A DNA stretch of 56,168 nucleotides, taken from positions 1-56,168 of the IMG/VR virus record IMGVR_UViG_3300034053_000011. One strand, written 5' to 3'. The stretch is from a virus. Taxonomy: Duplodnaviria > Caudoviricetes. The notes beneath the pieces were generated by a model. That model was not told the origin of the DNA. It did not search any database and saw only the letters and a program-made list of their open reading frames with translations. The position numbers and the translations under genes are program-made. The first letter of the stretch is position 1. Every line of letters begins with the position of its first letter. This document shows positions 19,937 through 52,819 of this stretch, one piece after another.

Positions 19937-22900
19937 ATGGCAGAACTAGACTGGTCCCGGGCTATCCCCGCTGATAACGATTTTCGCGATGCGCGAGACA
20001 TCCAGATGGGGGTAGAAAAACCGAAGTCACTTGATTGGTCTGCTGCTATTGAAGCACCTGAAGTAGAACAAAAACCCTCCGGCCTCCTTGGTGTCGGAGA
20101 AGCCATCTGGACCGGGACAAAGAACCTGATCGAGATGGGCCGGGCTACCGGCAACGTCATCTCCGGTGACAACGCCGCCGTCGAGGCTGGCCGCGAGCGC
20201 AACCTCGCCAACGAAGCAAACTCCCCCCTCGAGAAGCGCCAGTTCATGGCCGACTACATGGCGCGCAACAAGCGCGACCGTGGCACCGATGGCGACGTCT
20301 CCATGCTCGATGCGATCGGTAACCTCGCGTCATCCGCGTGGAACAACAAGATGGGCTTCACCCAGGCGATGGCCGAGCAGGCGCCGAACGCCGTGCCCGT
20401 GCTCGCGATGGGTGCTGCCGGTGCGGCTGCTGGCGCTGCTACGCCAATTCCTGGCGGGGCCATCATCGGCGGCTTCCTCGGCATGGCCCTGGGCAACGCC
20501 GGCATCGAGATCGGCTCCAAGGCTATCGAGAAGGCTGAAGGCGGCCTGACCAATGAAGAATCCAGCGCTGCTCTAAGGGAAGGTTCCGTCAAGGGCACAG
20601 TGATTGCCGGCGTCGACCTGGCCACGCTCGGTATCGGTGGCAAGGCGATGAAGGCTATAGGCGGCACTGCCGTCAAGGCCGGCGCTATGGCAGAGGCCAA
20701 GGTGCTGATGGACGCCGGCGTCGACGTCACCAACCCGATGGCGATAGCTTCCCGGCTCGCTGCTGACAAGGCGCTCGCAGCGTCCGCCAAAGCCGCTGGA
20801 ACCACCGCGGCAAGGGATGCACTCACGCTCGGTCAGAAGGCCGGCATGGCGGCCACTGGCATGGGGCTGGAGACAGTCGGCGAGGGTGTCGGCGAATACT
20901 TCGGCGAGATGGCAGCCACCGGCAAGGGCAACATGGGCGATGCGGTCCTCGAGGCCTTCATGGGAGCCGGTCAGTCGTCTGTCGAGACCGCTTACAACTT
21001 CAACAAGGTCGGGCGCAACGAGCTCGACATGCGCAACATACTCAACGCCGGATCAACCGAAGAGGCGATCCAGCACGCGCGGAATGCACTGGCGCAGAAG
21101 ACGACGGCCGCCAACGTCACCGCCGCCACCGACTTTGAAGTCACTGGCGACTCCGTCATCAACGAGATGGCTGGCGGCCTGGATGCACTCCAGACCTTCA
21201 ACAACCAGACGATCAGCGAGCCTAATGCAGCGGCCGCCGTGGCTGATGCTGATCAGTTCGTACCCGGCGCCGTGCAACCGGTCCCGCTCGAATACCGCAA
21301 CCAGCAGATCATCAACGCCACGCCGGAGACACCACCGGGAATTACCCCGCCGCCGTATCAACGAGGCACTGGTGGGGCGATCAGCGATGCGTCGCTACCG
21401 ATCATAGGGCAGACGCCAGCAACGGCTCCTACGCCCGCTATTGAAGGCGCGCCCAAGGTCAGCATGTACGACCAATACTTGGCCATCCAAGCCAAGGTCG
21501 CCAAAGGTGCAACGCCTACTGCCTTCGAGGCAGCACTCCTCAAGAACCCACCTCCCTCCCCCGCCACACCCACGCTCGAGCTCCCAGCTGGCAAGCAGCA
21601 AGCCGGCGAGGGGCAGGCCAAGCTGATCCAGGAAGTTCAGCGCGCGCGGCAGATGGCGCGCTCCGCTCCGCAGCTTGAGCAGGACGCCGCCCAAGATGAG
21701 CTCGCACCGGCACCGGTCACCATGCAGACCACTCCGGTCCAGGCGCCGCAGCCGGTTAAGTCTGTACCAACCACCCAGACACAGCTCGAGCAGCAAGAGT
21801 TGGTGCCTCGCACCAGCGTCAAGGTCGGTGGCGTCAATGCCGACCTGATGTCGAATGAAGAGCTGCAGGCGATCGTCACGAACCCGAAGGCGAACAAGAA
21901 TACCCGCCGTGCTGCGCAAGAGGTTCTATCCACCCGCTTCACCCCCCAGCGCACGGACATCGCAGAGCTCGAGCGCCAACAATTCCCTGACGTAGGAGAG
22001 ACAACGAATGCCCCTCAAGCCACAGAAGCCCCGGTGCCCGCACTGCAAGAAGAAGCACAGCCCGAGCCGGGAGTGTCCCGCACAGTCGCAAAGCGCTCCG
22101 AAAACCTAGAGCGGATGCTCCGTGAGAATCCCGCAGAGGATCGCGGGATCATGGCCGGCGAGGTCGATATCAACTCGCTGGGCAGCGAGGTCAGCTCGCT
22201 GAAGACGAAGCGTATGGGCAAGCTCAAGGCCCGTGGCATCAAGGCGCTGATGGCCCTGTTCGGGCGCAAGGTGGTCTTCTTCGAGGCCAGCAAGGATACG
22301 GCGGAAGGCATCCACTCCGACAAGAACAATCGCACAATCTACGTCAATGTCGATTCAGAAGTCGATACCCTGGCGGTGGTCAATCACGAGTTCTCCCACT
22401 CGTTTGAGAAGGAGCACCCGGCAGAGTACGCCAAGGCCGTAGCCGCGACTGAAGCCCTGCTGCGTGCTGACGGTACCCGGGCGCTGAAGTATGCGACCTA
22501 CTACAACAAGCGCGACTGGATCGCTGATGGTGCCGTCAAAGATGAGAACGTCGGCGACCTGGCCCGGGAGCTGATCGGCGACATCACCGGCAACGAGGCC
22601 CGCACCGGTGAGTTCTGGGGCGATGTGTTCAACGAGGTGGCGCTACAGAACCCGACCGAGGCCCGGGGCATCATTACCCGTATCCGCGATGCGGTGGTCA
22701 AGTTCATTAACAAGGTGATCGCTGCCACACCGAAGGGTGGCTTCCAGCTCGAGGGTGTCGGCTTCACCCGCGAAGACCTGAAAGAGATCCGTGACCAGGT
22801 GGTGCAGATGGCCGCCAAGTCGATGGTCAAGGCCGAGCGTGTTCGCCTGGGCCTTGAGCAGGATACGGCGGCGGGGGATGGGGTGGTGCGGGAAGCGGCA

Positions 22901-25900
22901 AACCGCAAACAAAAAGTTGCCGTCGCCAAAGGGGCAAAGGCTGGCTTCTCTACGGACAACAAAGTCGGCGTGGCTGTCTCTGCGTCTTACAAGCCTGGCC
23001 GGAACTACGGCACCGTGGTTTATCCGGAGAACGGCGGCAATCTCGTTCGCTTGCATGAGCGGATGCTGGTCATCACCCGCTCCGCGGACTTCGATCGCTT
23101 GCTTGAATCGATCGGGCTCAAGAGCTTCGGCGCGCAGACCACGATCCGCGGGATGTGGGATCGCGAACCGGAATGGACCCAGGTGCTACGCCTGAAGCAA
23201 CTCAACGGCACACCGGCCACGTTCGAGCAGACCCGTGCCGTAGCCAACCTGCTTGGCTGGGCCACACAGCAGGATGCTGCCATCACCTCGATGGTGGTCG
23301 ATAAGCCGGTGGATGGCCAGTACAACATCCCGAGTCTGTACTTCGGCAAGGAAGACGGCACGCCGATGACGGCCGCCGAGATCGATACCGCACTGGCCGC
23401 CTTCGGCAAAGTAACGCCCGGGGCGTCGGTCACGCCAGACGGCAAAACAGTTAAGTTCCTATTCTTCCCGGATGAGAAGTCAAAGCTCAGTGAAACTGAC
23501 CAGCAAATTCAGTTCGGCAAAAATTTGCAGGCTGTTGCGGTTAGCGTTAATCTAAGCCCTGACTACCTGTTGGCATTTACTAACTCGTCTCTGGATGAGT
23601 TCAATAAGAGGACGAACGAAAATGAAAACCGCGGATATCTTGGCCGCAATGAAGGCTACTGGGGGAAGGCTGCTAAAGGACTCGGACCCAGAGCTATACA
23701 AGGCGGAATTGGCGGGCGGACCGTCGATGTCGTTCTCGTCCCGTACATCGCCGCCGTCAGAGCCGAAGGATTCGGATTCGACTACGACCTCTGGCAACAG
23801 CGAAACAAGGCAACCGCAGCAGAAGTAGCCGAGCTTCGCGAGAAGGTCGCTGCCTACGAACAGCAGAACAAGCACGGGCTAAAACCACGTCTGCGCGAAA
23901 CGATCGATATCTCCAATCTCCCGGAGGTGTCGATCGAGGCGCAGATCACCCAGAAAACGAACGAGGCCAACGCCGAGAATCAGCTCGGCATCCTCGACAA
24001 GCTCAAGCAACAATTCCCCAACGCCGTCGAATCCGCCCGTGAGTGGCTCACGATGGCGGCGCACGCCTTTGGCAGCAATGATGTTCCGGTGGCACCGCGC
24101 AACCTGATCAACCTGATGCAGGACAGCGGCGCCGGCATCCTCGAGCAGTTGCGTCAGCTCACCCCGGGGCAGATCAAGGACGCCACCTCTGGCTTCAACA
24201 ACGCGGCCGAGTTCCTCCAGCTTTACACCTCCGGCAAAGTGAAGGTCGAGACCACTGGCAAGCTGATGCTGTGGTCGTTCCTGTCACGCGGGGTCAGCCC
24301 GTACATCCAGGAGGCGATGTTCGTTGATTCCGTGCGTGGTGTCGAGCCGTTCATTCAACAGGCCGCGCGCGGAGAATTTGGTCCGGCAGAGCTGGCAAAT
24401 TACATCGAGTGGGCCGATGGTATTGCCAAGTCCAACGGCGCCGGAGCACCCGGCAATGCCACCAAGCACAACCTGAATGCGTTCGGCAAGAGCTTCTTGA
24501 TCGGGATGTCGCAGAAGGCAGCAAACGGCAAGACCAAACTGCAGCATTTGCATGACATGCTCTCCGACAAATCGATGACTGGCCGCGACATCCGCCGCGA
24601 ATTTGTCAGGATGTCCGAGGGTGTTGGCATCGACAACAAGGTGATGTCATTCACGCTGCTGGTGACTGGGCGCACCGACGTACTGGTGCTGGACCGTATC
24701 CAGATGCGCAATCTGTTCGACGACGGCAGCTTCGCTGGCTACAATCTGTACGACGGCACGCGCAACACCAAGCTGGTAACGGACGCCAAGGACAAAACCA
24801 AGCGGACCATTCACGAGGCTATCAGCCAGCGTGAAGGCGAGACTGACGAGGAGTTCGATAACCGCGTTGATCAAGCTATGCGCAACCTGGCCAAGCAGCT
24901 CAAGATCAAGCCGTCCGCGATCGAAGCGGAACGCGCCATCGAACCTGGCACCGGGTTGGCAAGCATGACCACGGGCGTCCGCGGCTTGATGCTCTACGAG
25001 TTCTTTGAAGACAAGTTGCTCAAGATTCTGCCCGATGTGTATCAGAAGCTAGGCCGCCCACAAGATGCGTCACCGGGGCGATACCACTGGGAATCCTGGG
25101 TGGTGGTGTCAGGTCAAGAGGCCTCTCACGGCACACTGGACTCGCTGCTCTACGAAGCCGAGGGGCAGGAGAATGCGTTTGCTGATGTGACCGTCAAGCA
25201 GGGCGAGTATTCGCAGAAGGACTACGGCGTGCGCTATGGCCGTGACGTCAAGGGCAATCCGTACTACCTCTACGAGAACTCGGCCGGTACCCAGTACAAG
25301 TTGACGCACGACGCCTGGCGCGCTTTGCTGAAGAGCATTGACCGGATCAAGGGTAGGGCTGCCGGGTTCCTGCTGTCTCGAGATGAGCAAGGAAATGCCA
25401 GAACGCAACCGTGGTATTTTGACTCCCGCATCGATCGCGCTAAGATTGACGCCGAACTTCAACAACTAGGAGAGCCGCATGACGGACAAGGAACAGGATC
25501 AGCCCGCCGATCCAATGCGCGGAGCAGTGAATATGATCGAACAGGCTCTGCGGCGGAAGGACGCCCAAGTTATGGTCGAGGTAGAGAAGGAGCGGTCCAG
25601 GCTACGGGAGTCCACTACTCCAAAGCCCAGCGAGGAGAGTTAAGCTCCCGGTTCTTCGGGACCGGGATGAAGGGCGAGGAAGGTGCGCGGATCTCGTATG
25701 CCAAGGACGAGCGGATCAAGAATCGCCTGTACTTCTACATCAACACCGGGCGCGGGGTCGTGCCAGAATCGGACGTTGGCGCCCACGCCCACACGGTAGA
25801 TCTGCAGAACCTCTACGACTTGGACTCCGATCCCCTGGAGCTCTACCCGCGTAGCGATCCAACCAAGGATCAGCGCGACCAGCCTCTCGCCGACGAGCGA

Positions 25901-28900
25901 ATGAACTCGTTCGAGAGCAAGGTTCTCGATGCAGGCTTTGACGGCTACCTCACTCGCGACTTCGGCACCGGCGGCGCCGTGGTCCTGCTCGGTGATCACT
26001 CGGTCCCAGTGCAATACGAGGGCTCCGGCGTCAAGCCCGACGCCCAGGCCTTTTCTGAGCCTGTCACCCTGCGTGGCTGGCGTGAGCTGCAGGACAAGGT
26101 GACCAAGAACAACAGCCTGCCCAACGGCAGTATGATGGGCGCTGACTGGAAGCGCATGATGCCCAAGCTCATGCCCGAGCTGGATGTCTCCCATCTGCCC
26201 GACGAGCGACGCTTCTACAAGGACCAGTTGGTCAAGAGGCCGGAGGCGCGGATGAGCAACCGCCGCGTCGTCGACGTCTTCAAGACCTTGGCAAAAGACG
26301 AGGAGGCGTTCAAGTATCCGGTTCAGACGTCCATGGACCTGGGCGAAGTGGTCAAGGGTATCGACCCGGCTTTCAAGGTGTATCCGGTTGGCAGCGATCA
26401 CTGGTCTGTTGATGAGGCTAAGGCCGACGAGGGGTGGATCATCGTTGCGCCTGACAAGAAGGATGGCTGGGTGTTCCGCAAAGGCAACGACGTCTGGATC
26501 AATGTAGCCTCATTCGGATCTGGGCAGAGCCGCGGGACGGTGGTCTATCAGGCGGTTGGCGACTGGGTCTACAACAACGGCTTCAAGTTCCTTGGCGACC
26601 CGGCGGGCATCTCCTACTTCGGCGCCACCCGGCGGATTGAGAACCTGATCAGCTCGGCGCTCAAGCACGGAACCACAGAACATCTGCGCCCCCACCCGGG
26701 GAACTTCGACCATGTGCCGCCGAATGACCTGGCAGACCACTCAGAAATCAAGTGGGAAGAGGGCGCGCATGATCAAAATTTGGAGAAACTGATCCTGGCG
26801 AGCTATGCTGCAGTTATCGATAGCTACCCGGAGATCAAAGATGTCCGCTTTATACCTGCAACCGGAAGGTTTGAACGAGCTGGAACTCCGCTTGTGGACG
26901 AAGATATTCAGCAGCTCATCGCCGACAACCCCGCCAGCGCTGGTCTTGGCAAGGTATTTGGAGTCTCATCGTTCAAGAGAAGCGTGCTCGTCGATACCGT
27001 TCTACGCGAAACGGGAGGCGAAGGAAGGGGTGGAATACTGGGCGAGCTGGAGCGTCAGCTACAATCCACCGGCTCCGTACCTGGTTTAGGCAAGGTTCTC
27101 TACAGCAATGCCCGCGCTCTACCCAACGACACCCCTGTTAACCGAACTCTCGACGGGGCCAAACTCCAGGCCCTACGTCGTGCTGCGGCTGATCTCGAGC
27201 GACCCAAGGATGGCGTCTACCTCCGCATCACCGAAGACGGTCGTGCCATCGCCACCGGACCCAAGGGCACTCGCATCCCCGAGACTTTCCGTCGTTTCGC
27301 TAGAGACAACGACTTAGCGTTCTTCGCCGAACGCGACATCGGCGTATCCATCTACTCGAAAGCACCGCAAACCACCAAGTCGGAGCCGATGTCCATCGAC
27401 TACCGCGAGAGCGGCGCGCTGTACTTCGGCGAGATGGGTGACGCTAAACTTGATAGAACTGAGCGGACGCGCTTCTCCTTCAAGCGCGTCGACACCAACT
27501 CACCTGAGTTCAAAAAATGGTTCTCAGGGAGCAAGGTGGTTGATGCGAATGGCAAGCCGTTACGGGTGTATCACGGGACAAGGCTGGATTCGCCTATCGA
27601 TCAATTTGATGGGTTGAATTATTCAGGTTGGTTCAGTTCCGCACCAGAAACAGCAAACACCTATGCTGGAGGATATAGTGGAGAGCAAATTGATGAAGGG
27701 TCAGTGTATCCGACGTATCTTGCCATTCGTAATCCGATTGATTTACGCAATCGTGGATTCGATCTGAATGACGATGCGGATATTCAGGGACTTATAGAGG
27801 CTATTCCAGAAGTGGATATGCGCACTTTCAAAACCCATGAAGGAGCATGGGAGGTTTGGGAAATCATCAATAGCCTTGATTTTAGAGAAGCGGCAGAGGC
27901 TGCAGGTTTTGATGGTCTTATCGCTCCGGAAAATAGAGTTACAACATACGCGGCATTCTTCCCCTCTCAAATCAAGTCCGCCATCAGCAACACCGGCGCC
28001 TTCTCCGACACCAATCCTGATATTCGGTATTCGACAAATCGCCTGATCGGCAACTCCGGCCGGCAATACACGCCGGAGCAGGAGGCGATGCACCAGCGTG
28101 TCGGTCGGGTGGTGGATGAGAAGACCATCCTCGAGCGGCTGAAGGATTACATCCAGAAGCGCTGGCGGCAGGGGATCTTCGATCAGTTCGCTCCGTTCTA
28201 CGGGACGCAGGCCTACACCTTGATGCGCTTGTCCAAGGGCTCCACGGGGGCGTTTGAGGCGTTTATGAAGCACGGCAAGCTATCACTGCGTGATGGCGCC
28301 TACGACGCTGACACCACCGGCGGTGTGATCGAGAATGTGTTTCATCCTCTTGGCAAGGAGACGACTGACTTCCTCTACTGGATAGCAGGCAACCGGGCCG
28401 AGCGGTTGGTCGCCGAGGGCAAGGAGCGCCTCTTTACCAATGCCGACATCCAGGCCGCAAAGAGCCTGGCTGATGGCCAGCTCGACTTCGATTACATCCT
28501 GCGCAACGGTACTGTAACGCGCAGCCGCAAGGCCGCCTACATGGACAGCCTGGTCAAGTTCAACGAATTTAACAAGAACGTGATGGACATGGCCGAGCAG
28601 TCAGGGCTGATCGATGGTGCAGCTCGCCACCTATGGGAGCACGAGTTCTACGTTCCGTTCTACAGGGTAATGGAGGACGAGAACACCCGGGCCATGGGGA
28701 TCAAGAAGGGTATTGTCAGGCAGGAGGCTTTCAAGAAGCTGAAGGGCGGCGAGGAACAGCTCGGTGACTTGCTGATGAACACCTTGTTGAACTGGCACCA
28801 CTTGGTTGATGCGGCATCGAAGAATCGCGCGGCCAAGGCGGCGCTCGAGACGGCGCAGCAGTTGGGTATCGCCAGTCCTGCGGTCACCGGCGAGACGAAG

Positions 28901-30529
28901 ACGGTATGGTTCATGGACAACGGGCAGAAGGTTGACTACAAGGTCGATGACCCTGCTGTACTGGAAGCCATCAACGGGCTGCAGTACGCTGGCCTACAGG
29001 GCCCGCTGTGGTCCATCCTGACGGCACCAAAGCATTGGCTCACCGTGGGCGTCACGGCGTCGCCGTTCTTCAAGGTGCGCAACCTGATCCGTGACTCGGT
29101 GCAGGCGATCGCCACTTCGGATCTCAGCTACAACATCGCGAACAATGTGATTGAAGGCGTCAAGCTCACCGCGCGCGATCGGCAGGAATACGTCTCGGCC
29201 CTGGCCGGCGGTGGCCTGATCCGCTTCGGCACCATGCTCGAGGGCAACGAGGCCAAGCGCACCCGGCAACTGATCCGCAAGGGTGCCAAAGACGCTGCCA
29301 TACTGGACAGCCAGGGTGCCTGGACGAAGTTCTACACCGCGGCTTTGGAGCCGGCGATAGAGGCCTACAACGAGCTCGGCAACCGCGGCGAAGAGATCAA
29401 CCGCATGTCGCTCTATAACCAGCTCATCAAGCAAGGCAAGGATCACGCGACGGCCAGCTTGATGGCTCGCGACCTGATGGATTTCAGTCTGCAAGGTTCG
29501 TTCGAGACGATCCGCATCCTGTCCCAGATCGTGCCGTTCTTCAACGCTCGGATGCAGGGCATGTATAAGCTCGGCCGAGCAACGAAGGAGAACCGAGCTC
29601 ACATGGCGACGGTGATCTTCACTGCCGCCCTTGCCAGTCTGGCGCTGATGGGGATGGCCGCCGGTGACGAGGACAAGTGGAAGAAGTGGAAGAAGCGCGA
29701 GGAGTGGGACAAGGCCAGCAACTGGTGGTTCGAGTTCGGCGGCGTGCAGTACCGCATCCCGAAGCCGTTCGAGTTGGGCACCGTGTCGCACATCATGGAA
29801 CGCACCGTCGAGGGTATGTTCGACAAGGAGCGTGATGCGGGCAAACGCACGGCCAAGGCTCTGATGGATGCCGCGATGAATCAGCTCTCAATGAACCCGG
29901 TGCCGCAGGCGTTCAAGCCGATCATCGACCTGTACGCCAACTACGACAGCTTCACCAAGCGCCCGATCGAAACGATGTCGATGCAGCGCCTGGACAAGGA
30001 CCAGCGTTACACGGCGCAGACCTCGATGCCGGCGCGCGCACTATCATCGACGGTGGGCGGTCTGTCACCGGTGCAATATGACCATCTGGTCAGGGCCTAC
30101 TTCGGTTGGCTCGGGGCGCTGTCTGTTGGTACGGCAGACATCGTGGCGCGGTCAGTCAATGATGAGCCGACGAAGCCGGCACTGGACTACTGGAAGTTCG
30201 CCACCGGTGGGCTCCTGCAAGAGGACCAGATTGCCAGTCGCTACACCTCGATGATGTACGACCAGGCGGCCGAGCTCGAGCAGGCGCACGCGACCTACAA
30301 CAAGCTGCGCAAGGACGGCAAACTGGACGAGGCCAAGGAGTACCGTGAGGACAACAAGGACAAGCTCAGCGCCTACCGTTCAGTCGAGAATGTCAAGAAG
30401 CAGGTTGCCACGATCAGCGAACGTATCCGCATGATCGAGCGCAGCAACATTCACCCGGCTGAGAAGCGGATCAAGATTCGAGAGTTGAAGCAGCGCCAGA
30501 GTGACATCGCCTCGAAGTTGAGTCAGTAA
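19937..30529 (+). CDS. Giant polyvalent (ejection/anti-host) protein, 3530 aa: HExxH metallopeptidase-like, HhH-GPD glycosylase-like, two ADP-ribosyltransferase-like, GNAT-like and C-terminal LPD38 domains
   Basis: NHEFSH (22385); GIDNKVMSF...DVLVLDRIQMR (24626-24709); VHYS...RLYFY...GFDGY (25610-25950); FKKWF.GSKVVD.NGKPL.VYHGT...QIKSA..N.G.F....DIRYS (27500-28033); W.....RIPKPFELG (LPD38). Confidence 0.85.
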   Translation: MAELDWSRAIPADNDFRDARDIQMGVEKPKSLDWSAAIEAPEVEQKPSGLLGVGEAIWTGTKNLIEMGRATGNVISGDNAAVEAGRERNLANEANSPLEKRQFMADYMARNKRDRGTDGDVSMLDAIGNLASSAWNNKMGFTQAMAEQAPNAVPVLAMGAAGAAAGAATPIPGGAIIGGFLGMALGNAGIEIGSKAIEKAEGGLTNEESSAALREGSVKGTVIAGVDLATLGIGGKAMKAIGGTAVKAGAMAEAKVLMDAGVDVTNPMAIASRLAADKALAASAKAAGTTAARDALTLGQKAGMAATGMGLETVGEGVGEYFGEMAATGKGNMGDAVLEAFMGAGQSSVETAYNFNKVGRNELDMRNILNAGSTEEAIQHARNALAQKTTAANVTAATDFEVTGDSVINEMAGGLDALQTFNNQTISEPNAAAAVADADQFVPGAVQPVPLEYRNQQIINATPETPPGITPPPYQRGTGGAISDASLPIIGQTPATAPTPAIEGAPKVSMYDQYLAIQAKVAKGATPTAFEAALLKNPPPSPATPTLELPAGKQQAGEGQAKLIQEVQRARQMARSAPQLEQDAAQDELAPAPVTMQTTPVQAPQPVKSVPTTQTQLEQQELVPRTSVKVGGVNADLMSNEELQAIVTNPKANKNTRRAAQEVLSTRFTPQRTDIAELERQQFPDVGETTNAPQATEAPVPALQEEAQPEPGVSRTVAKRSENLERMLRENPAEDRGIMAGEVDINSLGSEVSSLKTKRMGKLKARGIKALMALFGRKVVFFEASKDTAEGIHSDKNNRTIYVNVDSEVDTLAVVNHEFSHSFEKEHPAEYAKAVAATEALLRADGTRALKYATYYNKRDWIADGAVKDENVGDLARELIGDITGNEARTGEFWGDVFNEVALQNPTEARGIITRIRDAVVKFINKVIAATPKGGFQLEGVGFTREDLKEIRDQVVQMAAKSMVKAERVRLGLEQDTAAGDGVVREAANRKQKVAVAKGAKAGFSTDNKVGVAVSASYKPGRNYGTVVYPENGGNLVRLHERMLVITRSADFDRLLESIGLKSFGAQTTIRGMWDREPEWTQVLRLKQLNGTPATFEQTRAVANLLGWATQQDAAITSMVVDKPVDGQYNIPSLYFGKEDGTPMTAAEIDTALAAFGKVTPGASVTPDGKTVKFLFFPDEKSKLSETDQQIQFGKNLQAVAVSVNLSPDYLLAFTNSSLDEFNKRTNENENRGYLGRNEGYWGKAAKGLGPRAIQGGIGGRTVDVVLVPYIAAVRAEGFGFDYDLWQQRNKATAAEVAELREKVAAYEQQNKHGLKPRLRETIDISNLPEVSIEAQITQKTNEANAENQLGILDKLKQQFPNAVESAREWLTMAAHAFGSNDVPVAPRNLINLMQDSGAGILEQLRQLTPGQIKDATSGFNNAAEFLQLYTSGKVKVETTGKLMLWSFLSRGVSPYIQEAMFVDSVRGVEPFIQQAARGEFGPAELANYIEWADGIAKSNGAGAPGNATKHNLNAFGKSFLIGMSQKAANGKTKLQHLHDMLSDKSMTGRDIRREFVRMSEGVGIDNKVMSFTLLVTGRTDVLVLDRIQMRNLFDDGSFAGYNLYDGTRNTKLVTDAKDKTKRTIHEAISQREGETDEEFDNRVDQAMRNLAKQLKIKPSAIEAERAIEPGTGLASMTTGVRGLMLYEFFEDKLLKILPDVYQKLGRPQDASPGRYHWESWVVVSGQEASHGTLDSLLYEAEGQENAFADVTVKQGEYSQKDYGVRYGRDVKGNPYYLYENSAGTQYKLTHDAWRALLKSIDRIKGRAAGFLLSRDEQGNARTQPWYFDSRIDRAKIDAELQQLGEPHDGQGTGSARRSNARSSEYDRTGSAAEGRPSYGRGREGAVQATGVHYSKAQRGELSSRFFGTGMKGEEGARISYAKDERIKNRLYFYINTGRGVVPESDVGAHAHTVDLQNLYDLDSDPLELYPRSDPTKDQRDQPLADERMNSFESKVLDAGFDGYLTRDFGTGGAVVLLGDHSVPVQYEGSGVKPDAQAFSEPVTLRGWRELQDKVTKNNSLPNGSMMGADWKRMMPKLMPELDVSHLPDERRFYKDQLVKRPEARMSNRRVVDVFKTLAKDEEAFKYPVQTSMDLGEVVKGIDPAFKVYPVGSDHWSVDEAKADEGWIIVAPDKKDGWVFRKGNDVWINVASFGSGQSRGTVVYQAVGDWVYNNGFKFLGDPAGISYFGATRRIENLISSALKHGTTEHLRPHPGNFDHVPPNDLADHSEIKWEEGAHDQNLEKLILASYAAVIDSYPEIKDVRFIPATGRFERAGTPLVDEDIQQLIADNPASAGLGKVFGVSSFKRSVLVDTVLRETGGEGRGGILGELERQLQSTGSVPGLGKVLYSNARALPNDTPVNRTLDGAKLQALRRAAADLERPKDGVYLRITEDGRAIATGPKGTRIPETFRRFARDNDLAFFAERDIGVSIYSKAPQTTKSEPMSIDYRESGALYFGEMGDAKLDRTERTRFSFKRVDTNSPEFKKWFSGSKVVDANGKPLRVYHGTRLDSPIDQFDGLNYSGWFSSAPETANTYAGGYSGEQIDEGSVYPTYLAIRNPIDLRNRGFDLNDDADIQGLIEAIPEVDMRTFKTHEGAWEVWEIINSLDFREAAEAAGFDGLIAPENRVTTYAAFFPSQIKSAISNTGAFSDTNPDIRYSTNRLIGNSGRQYTPEQEAMHQRVGRVVDEKTILERLKDYIQKRWRQGIFDQFAPFYGTQAYTLMRLSKGSTGAFEAFMKHGKLSLRDGAYDADTTGGVIENVFHPLGKETTDFLYWIAGNRAERLVAEGKERLFTNADIQAAKSLADGQLDFDYILRNGTVTRSRKAAYMDSLVKFNEFNKNVMDMAEQSGLIDGAARHLWEHEFYVPFYRVMEDENTRAMGIKKGIVRQEAFKKLKGGEEQLGDLLMNTLLNWHHLVDAASKNRAAKAALETAQQLGIASPAVTGETKTVWFMDNGQKVDYKVDDPAVLEAINGLQYAGLQGPLWSILTAPKHWLTVGVTASPFFKVRNLIRDSVQAIATSDLSYNIANNVIEGVKLTARDRQEYVSALAGGGLIRFGTMLEGNEAKRTRQLIRKGAKDAAILDSQGAWTKFYTAALEPAIEAYNELGNRGEEINRMSLYNQLIKQGKDHATASLMARDLMDFSLQGSFETIRILSQIVPFFNARMQGMYKLGRATKENRAHMATVIFTAALASLALMGMAAGDEDKWKKWKKREEWDKASNWWFEFGGVQYRIPKPFELGTVSHIMERTVEGMFDKERDAGKRTAKALMDAAMNQLSMNPVPQAFKPIIDLYANYDSFTKRPIETMSMQRLDKDQRYTAQTSMPARALSSTVGGLSPVQYDHLVRAYFGWLGALSVGTADIVARSVNDEPTKPALDYWKFATGGLLQEDQIASRYTSMMYDQAAELEQAHATYNKLRKDGKLDEAKEYREDNKDKLSAYRSVENVKKQVATISERIRMIERSNIHPAEKRIKIRELKQRQSDIASKLSQ
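22008..22109 (+). CDS. Nested +1-frame ORF A, 33 aa, with a CxxC-x3-H-x5-C motif
   Basis: AGGAG RBS at 21994-21998, then MPLKPQKPRCPHCKKKHSPSRECPAQSQSAPKT*. Confidence 0.45.
   Translation: MPLKPQKPRCPHCKKKHSPSRECPAQSQSAPKT
23622..23828 (+). CDS. Nested +1-frame ORF B, 68 aa
   Basis: AAGAGG RBS, then MKTADILAAMKATGGRLLKDSDPELYKAELAGG...; possible promoter TTGCAG-17-TAATCT at 23525-23553. Confidence 0.5.
   Translation: MKTADILAAMKATGGRLLKDSDPELYKAELAGGPSMSFSSRTSPPSEPKDSDSTTTSGNSETRQPQQK
25419..25446 (+). promoter_or_regulatory. Internal sigma70-like promoter for nested ORF C
   Basis: TTGACT-16-TAAGAT, ending 32 nt before the ATG at 25479. Confidence 0.5.
25479..25643 (+). CDS. Nested +1-frame ORF C, 54 aa, helical and charged
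   Basis: AGGAG RBS, then MTDKEQDQPADPMRGAVNMIEQALRRKDAQVMVEVEKERSRLRESTTPKPSEES*. Confidence 0.55.
   Translation: MTDKEQDQPADPMRGAVNMIEQALRRKDAQVMVEVEKERSRLRESTTPKPSEES
26841..27089 (+). CDS. Nested +1-frame ORF D, 82 aa
   Basis: GGAG RBS, then MSALYLQPEGLNELELRLWTKIF...VLARYLESH...EGVEYWASW... Confidence 0.5.
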   Translation: MSALYLQPEGLNELELRLWTKIFSSSSPTTPPALVLARYLESHRSREACSSIPFYAKREAKEGVEYWASWSVSYNPPAPYLV

Positions 30530-49275: not shown

Positions 49276-49664
49276 TGAAGCGAGTGAGTTGGGAGGAAGT
49301 AGCAAACTACAGGGCGATGGTTGATGCGGCGACGGACGGCGTGCTGAGCGCCTGGGGTGTGCTGATGCGATCGAGCGATGGTGGCGTGCGTGGCTGGCCG
49401 AAGGCATCGGCCGGCTTCGACGTCAGATCGACCATCAATGACTTTGAGGATCTTGCCGACGAGGTCGAGCGGGCCGTGGCTGCCAGCGCGATGGCGATCA
49501 TCTACGGTGACCGCGGTGCGGGAGGGATGCCGGAGGCTCACAGGAGGCCGCTGGTGACGATCTACTGCGGCGGTGCATGGTTTGGTGACGGCGAGCCCGA
49601 GGTGGCCTTCCTTGAGGCTGTGGAGGCGTTTGAGCGGAAGGCGAGGGGGAGGGGGTTGCTATGA
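49275..49664 (+). CDS. Putative Q-like late antiterminator
   Basis: L..WG..MR...GWP..SAG...DFE....E...A..A..I.....P...R..L...Y pattern; sits before the packaging genes. Confidence 0.5.
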   Translation: MKRVSWEEVANYRAMVDAATDGVLSAWGVLMRSSDGGVRGWPKASAGFDVRSTINDFEDLADEVERAVAASAMAIIYGDRGAGGMPEAHRRPLVTIYCGGAWFGDGEPEVAFLEAVEAFERKARGRGLL

Positions 49665-49747
49665 GGCTAAACGGGATACTGATTTGCGAATAAAAAAGCC
49701 CCCGGGACCACGAGGGCGCCGAGGGCTTGGGGTGTTTTACCAGGGTG

Positions 49748-49969
49748 TTAATTCCGGTCAGCTTCGTAGGGTACGGTAGCCAGGATGTAGTTGGCCACGC
49801 TATGAAGTTCGCCAGCGGTTCCGGTTACTTGCATAACCCGTTGGCGCCGAGGATGAAGCGCTTGCAGGTGGGTGATGTGAAACTCGACGGTATGAACGGC
49901 GGGGCCGCAGGTGTCGAGCGCGGTGTCGCCTTCCAGTAGGTAGGCGGGTTGTCTGATTAGTGATTCCAT
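49748..49969 (-). CDS. Hypothetical protein, last gene of the hammerhead-led operon
   Basis: MESLIRQPAY after GGAG. Confidence 0.5.
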   Translation of the reverse strand: MESLIRQPAYLLEGDTALDTCGPAVHTVEFHITHLQALHPRRQRVMQVTGTAGELHSVANYILATVPYEADRN

Positions 49970-50084
49970 AACTGTCTCCAAGTTAAGACCGGCGGCTGCC
50001 GGTTGATGCGGCTGGCGATGCGGCGGGCAGAGCGCAGGCTCAACGGTTCGATGCGGTGGATGTGGACCTGGCCTAGGTGGGCGG

Positions 50085-50204
50085 TCATGGTTTCTTACTC
50101 CCATTCTTGTTGCGGCCGGCGCTGATCACGCTGATGCGTGGGTCGTAGCCGTCGTGATTGATCAGACTGAGTCTTCGCAGTTGTTGCATGAGTTGTGGGC
50201 GCAT
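50085..50204 (-). CDS. 39-aa ORF directly downstream of the hammerhead
   Basis: GGAG RBS, then MRPQLMQQLRRLSLINHDGYDPRISVISAGRNKNGSKKP*; ATGA overlap with a further 43-aa ORF. Confidence 0.45.
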   Translation of the reverse strand: MRPQLMQQLRRLSLINHDGYDPRISVISAGRNKNGSKKP

Positions 50205-50213
50205 CTCAGTTCT

Positions 50214-50308
50214 CCAGGTTGGTTTCGCTCTTGCTCTTCAGAGCCGGACTTCTACCGGCTGACCTTTCCGATCCGTTATCGATCGGCCCCTTCCGGCTAA
50301 CCACCTGG
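50214..50308 (-). ncRNA. Type III hammerhead ribozyme with two alternative cleavage strands
   Basis: Minus strand GGUC-AGCCGG-uagaagu-CCGGCU-CUGAAGA-GC-aaga-GC-GAAA-CC is a complete core. An upstream CCAGGUGGUU-AGCCGGA can pair with the same enzyme strand. Confidence 0.8.
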
Positions 50309-50382
50309 GATTCGGTGGATCTGAGCGGGAGCAGGTACTAGAGTTGCCGCTTTCGCGCTGTTTCGGTTGCCTGCTGAGACGT

Positions 50383-50411
50383 ATTCTGTTCTCAACTTCA
50401 CAGGTTGTCAA
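50383..50411 (-). promoter_or_regulatory. Sigma70 promoter driving the hammerhead transcript
   Basis: TTGACA-17-CAGAAT on the minus strand. Confidence 0.7.
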
Positions 50412-50488
50412 GTACTTTGTGCAATTATTTTGAGGTTGTCTGTTGAGGCCGTAGAATCGCGACACCTCAGACCACAGGTTTCCATGAC

Positions 50489-50686
50489 ATGACCAACACA
50501 GAACGAGCTCTACAACTGATTGATGCGGGCAAGACAGTCCGCCAGGCCGCCAGGGAAGTTGATATCAGCGAGTCAGCGCTGCACGCCGCGGTGAAGAAGC
50601 GCAAGGCCGAGCAACTCAAGGAGCAGGGTATTTGCCCTTGTTGCCATCAATCATTACCGGATAAACAGCCATTGACCAGCCCATAG
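50489..50686 (+). CDS. Small HTH DNA-binding protein with a C-terminal CPCC motif
   Basis: AL.LI..G.TVRQAAREVDISESAL helix-turn-helix. Confidence 0.7.
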   Translation: MTNTERALQLIDAGKTVRQAAREVDISESALHAAVKKRKAEQLKEQGICPCCHQSLPDKQPLTSP

Positions 50687-50700
50687 AAATTGTTTATGAT
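50672..50700 (+). promoter_or_regulatory. Sigma70 promoter upstream of the packaging genes
   Basis: TTGACC-17-TATGAT. Confidence 0.7.
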
Positions 50701-51047: not shown

Positions 51048-51341
51048 ATGCCAAGAGGTGGAAAGCGAGAGGGCGCTGGACGAAAAGCTGGCTCCAGTGA
51101 TCTCTTCAAGAAGGAAGCAGCGGCCGCGGTGGCTGCGAGTGGTGTAACGCCGCTTGAGTACATGCTTGGAATCATGCGCGACGGCAGCGCTGATCCAGAC
51201 AAGCGATTCGAGGCTGCAAAGGCATCGGCGCCGTACTGTCACCCGAAGCTGTCGAATGTGACGATGGACGCCAAGGTGCAGCACGAGTTGAGCAGGGAAG
51301 AGATTGAGGCCCGTTTGGCGGCCTACGGTGTGAAGATTTGA
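51048..51341 (+). CDS. Probable terminase small subunit
   Basis: RGGKREGAGRK, TPLEYML..MRD and AAK..APYCHPKL; overlaps the TerL start. Confidence 0.75.
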   Translation: MPRGGKREGAGRKAGSSDLFKKEAAAAVAASGVTPLEYMLGIMRDGSADPDKRFEAAKASAPYCHPKLSNVTMDAKVQHELSREEIEARLAAYGVKI

Positions 51342-52819
51342 CCGACGAACAAAAGCTCGAGGTGCTGCGGCTGCTTGAGATGCGCCGGCGCCTCGAGGCG
51401 AGAGATTCGCTGGAGATGTACGCAGAGGTCGCTGGCGGCGTAAAGCCGGCGCTACATCACAAGGTTTTGATTGAAGGGCTTGAGGCTGTCGAGGCGGGGC
51501 AGTGCGACGTGCTGTTGGTCATGATGCCTCCAGGCTCGGCCAAGTCGACGTATGGAAGCGTGATCTTCGGCGGCTGGTATCTCGGCCGGCATCCCGATCG
51601 ATGCGTGATCTCAGCGTCTCACACGCAAGAGCTCGCCGATCGCTTCGGGCGCCGGGTGCGCAATCTGTACGCCAGCGAGGAACATGCAGCGATCTTCCCG
51701 GGGTCCGGCTTGAGTGCCGACAGCTCGGCGGCTGGACGTTGGGACACACTGCACGGTGGCGAGTACTTCGCCGCTGGTGTTGGTGGCTCGGTCACTGGCC
51801 GGCGCGCTGACCTGGCCATCATCGACGACCCGGTAAAGAGCCGGGAGGACGCTGACAGCCAAACTGTGCGCGACAAGCAATGGGCCTGGTGGCGTGATGA
51901 TCTGATGACCCGCCTAAAGCCAGGCGCTGCGGTCGTGTTGATCATGACGCGCTGGCATGAGGATGATCTGGCCGGGCGAATGCTTGAGGATCTGAAGTCA
52001 TCGACGCTGCGGGTGCGGGTGATCAAGATCGCGATGGAGGCCGGAGAGGATGATCCTCTCGGGCGCCAGCCGGGTGAGTTGCTCTGGCCTGAGTGGTTCA
52101 CGCCGCAGATGGTTGAGGCAGCCAAGCGCGAGCCACGGACCTGGACGGCGCTGTACCAGCAGGAACCGCGGCCGATCGGTGGCGGCGAGTTACAGATAGG
52201 TTGGATGAATTACTGGGTGAATCAGCCTGCCACTGGCGTGCGCGTGATCCTGGTCGATCCGTCCAGCGGTAAGACAAAGAGCCGCGGCGACTACACCAGC
52301 ATGTGGGTCGTTGGTGTTGGGGCCGATGGGAATGATTACGTTGTCGATGGCGTGCGTGATCGCCTGAATCTGACGGAGCGAACTGAAGCACTGTTCGAGT
52401 TGGTGCGGCGGCACAACCCGGCTGCAGTTGGCTACGAGAGCTACGGCCTGCAGGCTGACATCGAGCACATCAGGATTGAGCAGGAGCGGCAGCAGTATCG
52501 GTTCAGGATCATAGAACTCGGTGGTGCCACCAAGAAAGAGGACCGCATCCGGCGCCTGATCCCGGGGTTCCAGCAGTCCAGGACGTGGATGCCGAGGTCA
52601 TTGATCAAGCGCATGAGCGACGGATCTCAGGCCGATATCATGGACGCCTTTAGGGCTGAGTATGTGTCGTTCCCGGTTGGGGCGCACGACGACGCGCTGG
52701 ACTGCCTGGCACGCAAGGAAGAGCCAGAGATCCGCAAGCTTCTGGTGGCTCCGAAACGCAGCGAGAATTCGCGGCCGGTGATTGCCTTCCGTCCGTTCGA
52801 TACCGCAACAGGCTACTAA
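51338..52819 (+). CDS. terL: Terminase large subunit
   Basis: MPPGSAKS (Walker A), GRRADLAIIDDP (Walker B), MTRWHEDD, LYQQ.P, VDP, FP.G.HDD..D. Confidence 0.95.
   Translation: MTDEQKLEVLRLLEMRRRLEARDSLEMYAEVAGGVKPALHHKVLIEGLEAVEAGQCDVLLVMMPPGSAKSTYGSVIFGGWYLGRHPDRCVISASHTQELADRFGRRVRNLYASEEHAAIFPGSGLSADSSAAGRWDTLHGGEYFAAGVGGSVTGRRADLAIIDDPVKSREDADSQTVRDKQWAWWRDDLMTRLKPGAAVVLIMTRWHEDDLAGRMLEDLKSSTLRVRVIKIAMEAGEDDPLGRQPGELLWPEWFTPQMVEAAKREPRTWTALYQQEPRPIGGGELQIGWMNYWVNQPATGVRVILVDPSSGKTKSRGDYTSMWVVGVGADGNDYVVDGVRDRLNLTERTEALFELVRRHNPAAVGYESYGLQADIEHIRIEQERQQYRFRIIELGGATKKEDRIRRLIPGFQQSRTWMPRSLIKRMSDGSQADIMDAFRAEYVSFPVGAHDDALDCLARKEEPEIRKLLVAPKRSENSRPVIAFRPFDTATGY

Follow-up and report, generated by a model that had tools for sequence, protein, structure and literature searches.

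The locus described here raises the question of whether a hammerhead-like motif in front of a phage ribosome-binding site (RBS) is a self-cleaving ribozyme and, if so, at which of two substrate-like strands its transcript would be cut and with what consequence for the genes downstream. The DNA that was analysed (the window) comprises 56,168 bp, a phage record that is complete and carries direct terminal repeats, and the motif lies on its minus strand.

The hammerhead motif and its transcription unit

The minus-strand unit that contains the motif diverges from the packaging operon (Table 1) of the phage, which also encodes an SU10/P22-like portal and a primase-helicase. From the position of the sigma-70-like promoter, the transcript would be expected to start near 50376. 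A 118-aa ORF listed at 49748..50104 on the minus strand is probably an over-extension of the 73-aa ORF, with the true start at ATG 49969. The N-terminal part of this longer frame is rich in proline, arginine and histidine and overlaps two better-supported small ORFs. No Pfam or PHROG match was obtained for the 39-, 43- and 73-aa ORFs, and no relatives of the 73-aa ORF were found in viral contigs. A blastn search of 49700-50700 against GenBank phages gave no match, and in four terminase relatives of the phage (L002-L005) the leader was absent by blastn, by a hammerhead descriptor and by the family model R1 (best score 9.1 bits). Elsewhere in the window, a 3530-aa ORF (19937-30529, plus strand) carries the polyvalent-protein domains LPD37, ART-PolyVal and LPD38; its product is a giant polyvalent protein and not a virion RNA polymerase of the N4 type.

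Table 1. Positions of the features of the leader, of the minus-strand unit behind it and of the neighbouring terminase genes.
Feature	Position	Strand	Remarks
Large terminase	51338-52819		
Small-terminase-like ORF	51048-51341		
Sigma-70-like promoter TTGACA-17-CAGAAT	50383..50411	minus	10/12 consensus matches
5' leader module	50202..50385	minus	from the end of the -10 hexamer to the ATG
Distal strand CCAGGUGGU-U-AGCCGGA	50308-50292	minus	candidate cut after U50299
Parts of the distal strand	50308-50303; 50302-50300; 50299; 50298-50292	minus	CCAGGU; GGU; U17; AGCCGGA
Hairpin CCGAUC-gauaacg-GAUCGG	50268-50286	minus	3 nt upstream of the proximal stem III strand
Compact type III hammerhead (proximal)	50221..50264	minus	stem III GGU/ACC; cut predicted after C50261
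Substrate strand GGUC	50264-50261	minus	C50261 is the cut-site nucleotide (H17)
Stem I AGCCGG/CCGGCU, 6 bp	50260-50255 / 50247-50242	minus	loop I UAGAAGU
Core CUGAAGA	50241-50235	minus	
Stem II GC-AAGA-GC, 2 bp	50234-50227	minus	loop AAGA
GAAA, then CC	50226-50223, 50222-50221	minus	GAA and A15.1
3' flank ACCUGG	50214..50219	minus	complementary to distal CCAGGU; overlaps first two Gs of RBS
Shine-Dalgarno GGAG	50215-50212	minus	7 nt upstream of ATG 50204
ORF, 39 aa	50085..50204	minus	starts at ATG 50204; stop overlaps next start (ATGA)
ORF, 43 aa	49957..50088	minus	coupled to the 39-aa ORF via the ATGA overlap
ORF, 73 aa	49748..49969	minus	own GGAG RBS; start ATG 49969
Intrinsic-terminator-like hairpin and T run	49698..49717	minus	end of the small operon

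All strings and coordinates on which the original prediction of a hammerhead had been based were found on the minus strand. Every position of the core consensus is satisfied in the proximal motif, namely C3-U4-G5-A6-N7-G8-A9, G12-A13-A14, A15.1-U16.1 and an H17 that is not G: the GAA occupies 50226-50224, A50223 pairs with U50262 to form A15.1-U16.1, and G50234 pairs with C50227 to form G10.1-C11.1 at the base of stem II. The topology is that of a type III hammerhead, with loops capping stems I and II and with stem III open; the proximal stem III comprises 3 bp only, which is the minimum seen in the family described below. In the 56,168-bp window, a relaxed type III descriptor matched this locus only, in two registers, and the same descriptor matched 12 of 300 window-sized Markov-random genomes (mean 0.04 hits). 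The family model R1 gave 64.4 bits at 50264-50221, compared with 9.5 bits for the runner-up in the window, the window sequence being itself one row of the family alignment and of this model. No Watson-Crick pseudoknot between loops I and II could be written by eye; the length of both loops and several positions in them that the searches had not imposed are conserved across relatives.

An Infernal search with the Rfam hammerhead models had been proposed as a check of the assignment, and when it was run it returned no match in the window. This was the case for all Rfam families at the gathering score over the whole window, for the region 50000-50600 at E ≤ 10, and for RF00008 across the whole record. 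When RF00008 was applied to 14 loci that bear members of the family, only two matches were obtained (26.9 and 24.6 bits), both below the gathering cut-off of 48.5 bits, which is a database criterion and not a biochemical one. Since family members likewise score below this cut-off, we regard the missing Rfam match as a gap in sensitivity and not as counter-evidence.

A family of compact hammerheads and its covariation

A 21-nt pattern that runs from the core through stem II to GAAACC retrieved 23 metagenome loci. Five of them (L008, L011, L017, L019 and L027) are true relatives in which the proximal motif is complete, down to the 30 upstream nt left unspecified by the pattern. All five show the proximal-type arrangement only, and they vary in the middle of loop I and at the fourth position of stem III, where L027 has no pair and the other four have A-U, G-C, G-C and G-U. 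The other 18 loci were rejected as coincidences within coding sequence, 17 in one marine phage gene plus L025. In the conserved coding region of this abundant marine phage gene (L006, L007, L009, L010, L012-L016, L018, L020-L024, L026 and L028), the 21-nt core string recurs without stems I and III, and it is a source of false positives for ribozyme searches that use short patterns.

In the viral scan, a 27-nt pattern ending in GAAACC gave 0 loci. A looser pattern, AGT-N6-CTGANGAGC-N4-GCGAAAC, fixed stem II, the core and the last three bases of loop I and required no helix; it retrieved at least 117 viral loci and 21 genome loci, the latter mostly MAGs of Clostridia and Bacteroidota together with one Gemmata. 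The helix descriptor was satisfied by 114 of the 117 viral loci (among the matches listed), by 11/21 genome loci and by 5/23 metagenome loci, and L109 fails it, as judged by eye, solely by a mismatch at the first stem I pair.

Among the matches listed, the family amounts to 134 instances from 131 sources, with 70 unique ribozyme sequences. Its architecture consists of a 6-bp stem I with a 7-nt loop (U-R-N-N-A-G-U), a 2-bp stem II with a 4-nt loop (A-N-N-A) and an open stem III of 3-10 bp. Within the 70 unique sequences among the matches listed, stem I has 6 bp in all and a 7-nt loop I is present in 69; H17 is occupied by C in 67 sequences and by U in 3, and at N7 there are 45 sequences with U, 14 with A and 11 with C. 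Stem III is reduced to 3 bp in six of these sequences, the window copy included, and AGCCGG is the commonest stem I (17/70).

Covariation was determined for 79 distinct 54-nt sequences among the matches listed. Paired cells made up 92.8% of the alignment, compared with 71.0% in shuffles, a percentage that is partly imposed because the descriptor accepted no sequence with fewer than 5 pairs in stem I or fewer than 3 in stem III; it placed no such constraint on how diverse the types of pair are. Changes on both sides were observed in 9 of the 14 pairs (243 cells; 5/6 pairs in stem I and 4/6 in stem III), while stem II could not vary as it was fixed by the search pattern. The covariation score was 0.535 compared with 0.112 in shuffles, none of the 500 shuffles reached the observed value, and when the registers were slid by 1-3 columns only 25-40% of the cells were paired. 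Several positions that neither pattern nor descriptor had imposed are also conserved, namely the first U and the A of loop I, the G-C pair closing this loop, C17 (67/70 unique sequences) and, in loop II, the A at either end. The window agrees with every one of them.

The hammerhead identity claimed originally is thus backed by covariation across the family. The accompanying worry about a stem II of 2 bp is no objection, as 79/79 aligned relatives share this feature, which the pattern imposes, and in active natural hammerheads stem II is commonly just two base pairs long according to Perreault et al. (2011; PMC3088659). With over 130 loci of identical 54-nt architecture recovered by patterns that required no helix, a chance match can be dismissed for the proximal motif, and 50264..50221 (minus strand), judged on its sequence, is very probably a genuine self-cleaving type III hammerhead of the known kind, from a compact family that is widespread in phages. 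The window has in this way led to a large, sharply defined family of compact hammerheads that lies below the Rfam thresholds, and a covariance model specific to this family would recover hundreds of ribozymes that are currently unannotated.

Three loci (L019, L065 and L086) carry two family hammerheads each, located 300-600 nt apart on the same strand, and the paired copies flank one small ORF. The second copy of L019, 300 nt away from the first, has the stem I UGCAGG/CCUGCA and the core CUGAUGA, and the two copies differ by compensatory changes in stem I. RNAs of other classes were found beside family members. The 2.3-kb viral locus L044 holds two pistol ribozymes (L044:139-206 and L044:528-595, both on the minus strand; 68.4 and 56.3 bits, cut-off 34.5) together with a family hammerhead, another example of different self-cleaving classes clustered in one phage. 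In another viral contig, a skipping-rope RNA (L072:1297-1377, minus strand; 76.6 bits, cut-off 36.7) adjoins a family hammerhead.

The leader, the distal strand and the choice of substrate

The ribozyme had been described as lying directly upstream of an RBS and a start codon, and the same placement was found in the relatives. Among the matches listed, a Shine-Dalgarno sequence, a start codon and an ORF no shorter than 30 aa follow within 80 nt in 86 of 96 distinct instances; the corresponding figure for positions drawn at random from the matching strand of these loci is 467 of 1920 (24%). The Shine-Dalgarno sequence starts within the 3' strand of stem III in 22 of these 86 instances (among the matches listed). 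The proteins encoded downstream are short and varied: 72 distinct N-termini occur among the matches listed. A search of the literature by titles and the beginnings of abstracts found no natural phage hammerhead that masks an RBS, and a search for the stem II core string returned an unrelated mouse paper only.

Metagenomic DNA contigs from four runs of four studies were compared with 49600-50600; the samples that contain this leader are aquatic, and no RNA run was among the sequencing runs listed for the stretch. Record 8 of run X1, a 2164-nt contig, contains 50202-50385 with 0 mismatches and two 1-base gaps, and unlike sequence flanks the leader at both borders. Upstream of this copy another promoter spacer is found, yet TTGACA-17-TCTAAT lies at the same distance (by eye), and downstream a different ORF, read from the loose end of the contig, begins at the same ATG. 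Record 11 of run X2 matches 50217-50412 with 6 other letters and then diverges; at 50217 this copy passes into an RBS and start codon of its own, with most of the outer helix formed by the distal strand and the 3' flank being lost. The differences listed inside the leader are at 50251 and 50252 in loop I and at base 50323, with gaps at 50348 and 50357. No base difference in the proximal or distal strand is among those listed, and few contigs cover these strands. As these comparisons show, the 5' UTR with its ribozyme is transferred as one unit and comes to lie between different promoters and genes.

Two further observations concern the surroundings of the leader. An 18-nt imperfect direct repeat (13/18) is formed by 50204-50221 and 50390-50407, 186 nt apart; its copies correspond to the 3' end of the leader and the promoter spacer, respectively, near the borders of the portable module. 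As a significant feature the repeat was rejected, being at chance level by a rough binomial estimate. The leaders of the window, L011 and L027 have nothing in common beyond the ribozyme. L011 and L027 share CTTTGACAACT about 100 nt upstream of the hammerhead and the window has CTTGACAAC at its -35 region, strings that may point to a common promoter type for these leaders.

The distal strand and the proximal strand form a direct repeat in which 11 of 13 positions are identical (13/18 over a longer stretch, by eye). The spacing is 38 nt, as it is between the candidate cuts after 50261 and 50299, and such a repeat suggests duplication or unequal exchange. The distal strand can form six extra in-register pairs between CCAGGU and ACCUGG (50219-50214), with one bulged A, compared with 0 pairs at the proximal copy. 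Six in-register pairs arose in 679 of 200000 random 10-mers (p about 0.003), so that we take the distal strand to be, probably, a genuine strand of stem III, present or ancestral. When judged out of register, the 6-bp outer helix is ordinary (p = 0.46), and across the family, outer helices that join upstream sequence to the 3' flank show no enrichment (2/95 at p ≤ 0.05, among the matches listed). As had been pointed out, the first two Gs of GGAG fall within the distal pairing (50219-50214 vs 50215-50212). As for the hairpin between the two strands, no other copy of it was found as a repeated element in the window or in the relative loci, and GC-rich hairpins just upstream of the ribozyme are common in the rows of relatives that were inspected by eye.

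A second substrate strand was found in 2 of 102 distinct family contexts among the matches listed, in the window and in L085, where it is weak and offers just 2 stem III pairs. In shuffled upstream regions, a strand that could replace the 5' strand of stem I behind U-H occurred in 3.3% of cases (665/20400). As the frequency in the family is no higher than this, the second strand is not a recurrent design, and the expectation that the two-strand arrangement would recur in homologues was not borne out. The distal strand 50308..50292 is a lineage-specific addition, which probably originated from a 38-nt duplication or insertion or from recombination between two hammerhead loci.

The folding of the leader was assessed by nearest-neighbour energies, to which we give little weight because they ignore tertiary contacts and shift with the amount of flanking sequence. 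Taken alone, the proximal fold has -20.8 kcal/mol and the distal fold -31.9 kcal/mol; the proximal fold with the outer helix reaches -29.3 kcal/mol, and a hybrid fold without the hammerhead junction -33.0 kcal/mol. The best proximal-compatible structure has -32.5 kcal/mol and the best distal-compatible one -33.4 kcal/mol. The unconstrained minimum free energy (MFE) of the leader, -39.7 kcal/mol, belongs to a non-hammerhead fold, and the leader as a whole is no more stable than shuffles (z = -0.41). The energy gap between hammerhead and MFE was dropped as evidence since the rank of the window depends on the length of the upstream context, being 96/97 with 50 nt and 33/94 with 110 nt (among the matches listed). 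A closed 7-nt loop I is kept only in the proximal register, while the distal register opens it, and for this reason we infer that the proximal site is the efficient one and that a second cut at the distal strand would probably be inefficient. The proximal register also has the upstream hairpin that many relatives show.

Taken together, we consider it reasonably likely that the proximal type III hammerhead cleaves itself in front of the RBS and that the distal strand was added to it in this lineage. Under this reading, the promoter at 50411 would drive transcription of the leader, and self-cleavage, most likely after C50261, would remove a 5' leader of about 115 nt. The resulting mRNA would start with a 5'-OH and with the ribozyme in its folded form, 9 nt upstream of the GGAG RBS that precedes the three small ORFs. 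The likely function would be to provide a defined, context-independent mRNA 5' end and to set the access to the RBS. In uncut RNA the distal strand may pair with the 3' flank, which would either lengthen the weak 3-bp stem III across a branch or compete with the proximal GGU for ACC, and either mode of pairing would mask part of the RBS. The motif, its family, the covariation, the position before RBS and start codon and the portability of the leader are observed, and what we infer from the sequence comprises cleavage, the site used and the effects on stability and translation. The position of the family in front of RBS and start codon (86/96, among the matches listed) makes one idea directly testable, namely that phage gene cassettes obtain their mRNA 5' end and an open RBS through cleavage.

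According to the original prediction, one core alternates between the two substrates and cuts after both 50261 and 50299, so that the leader would act as a translational switch or timer and set free a hairpin RNA of 38 nt, possibly circularisable, with 5'-OH and 2',3'-cyclic phosphate ends. Both registers do obey the hammerhead rules, the structures compatible with them are nearly iso-energetic, and U17, as at the distal site, is found in 3/70 unique relatives (among the matches listed). The in-register complementarity of the distal strand is non-random, and its 6-bp extension speaks for a genuine stem III strand, current or former, which leaves some probability to a cut after U50299; moreover, neither strand is altered among the differences listed from the four other runs, with few contigs covering them. 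We nevertheless regard two cuts, and with them a 38-nt product, its circularisation and a timer, as unlikely, because the arrangement is not a family design and because the distal register would swap the conserved 7-nt loop I for a 43-nt branched insert. It would thereby lose the contact between loops I and II that the conservation of the loops implies, and slow cutting at cellular Mg would be expected. Distinctly doubtful, too, is a bistable arrangement in which a single core chooses between the proximal substrate, canonical and fast, and the distal one, with a 9-bp stem III that conceals the RBS, so that the partition would set both the time of mRNA cutting and the opening of the RBS, a double cut would free the 38-nt hairpin RNA, and the whole would form a portable 5' UTR cassette that phages exchange. 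That cutting takes place at the distal site alone (9-bp stem III, 7-bp stem I), with the proximal copy as a decoy, appears very unlikely to us. Its long stem III overlaps the RBS region, as stem III does in 22/86 relatives, and the distal fold alone is the more stable one; against this stand the loss of the conserved closed loop I, the GUC found in 67/70 unique relatives (among the matches listed) and the exclusively proximal-type arrangement of the five metagenome relatives.

It is possible, though we lean against it, that the distal strand is a roleless remnant of duplication or recombination and that the proximal ribozyme works as in the rest of the family. The direct repeat at 38 nt is in line with such a neutral scar, and AGCCGG as the commonest stem I of the family offers homology for unequal exchange. 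The leader is also found joined to differing flanks, outer helices are not enriched in the family, and the X2 version has replaced the 3' flank from 50217 and lost most of the outer helix. A scar of this kind has to account for the 6-bp in-register extension, which lies outside the repeat and would rarely arise by chance. An origin of the distal strand as the ancestral strand of stem III would account for this extension, and the distal strand would then still be a scar, though a non-random one. The listed differences in the leader, few in number and none of them in either strand, also speak against neutrality. We give hardly any credence to an inactive motif, either a decayed ribozyme or a sequence kept for another reason, e.g., as a protein-binding site. 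Such a motif would be consistent with the missing Rfam match, the 3-bp stem III and the non-hammerhead MFE fold, and some hammerhead-like RNAs without activity are reported by Perreault et al. (PMC3088659). The inactive examples described there bore core deviations, whereas every core position of the window copy fits the consensus and the window agrees with all family-conserved columns.

Comparison with known systems

Hundreds of bacterial hammerheads near prophage genes were described by Perreault et al. (2011; PMC3088659), who found that prophage hammerheads cleave in vitro and in vivo and that tandem copies flank single genes. Their function was given as unknown in that article, and the roles of bacterial and phage hammerheads were still called largely elusive in a review of 2019 (PMC6765202). 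As described in PMC3088659, the prophage hammerheads (RF00008) have in common with the elements found here the core CUGANGA...GAAA, A15.1-U16.1, H17 and three helices, as well as capped stems I and II, a 2-bp stem II, a position between or before small phage genes, and tandem copies flanking single genes (here in L019, L065 and L086). In contrast to them, the window copy lies in a promoter-proximal 5' UTR and not within a polycistron, and it bears a second substrate strand. With respect to RF00008 itself, no member of the family that was tested reaches the 48.5-bit cut-off. The glmS ribozyme is likewise a self-cleaving RNA in a bacterial 5' UTR, and its cut alters the fate of the downstream mRNA (PMC6765202). 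It differs in having another fold and in needing a metabolite cofactor, and there is no hint of a ligand in the window.

Hammerheads have also been engineered for use in bacteria, as RBS-masking aptazymes and as RiboJ-type 5' UTR insulators in which the ribozyme is placed directly before the RBS, and in some of these designs a ribozyme helix hides the RBS until cleavage. These devices are synthetic and built on hammerheads from plant pathogens or schistosomes. The elements described here share with them the position directly before the RBS, with the Shine-Dalgarno sequence starting in stem III in 22/86 natural relatives, but they are natural and compact, and an effect on translation is a candidate function.

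With its two alternative substrate strands, the leader in the window is a natural case for which we know of no described family of two-substrate (switching) hammerheads. A likeness is found in viroid and satellite RNAs, where stem III is weak and activity relies on extra or alternative pairings, as in double hammerheads; such double-hammerhead or alternative folding of viroid and satellite RNAs was reportedly described by Forster and colleagues in 1988. In those RNAs two full ribozyme copies cooperate in a multimeric RNA, whereas the phage leader combines one core with two substrate strands in the mRNA of a DNA phage.
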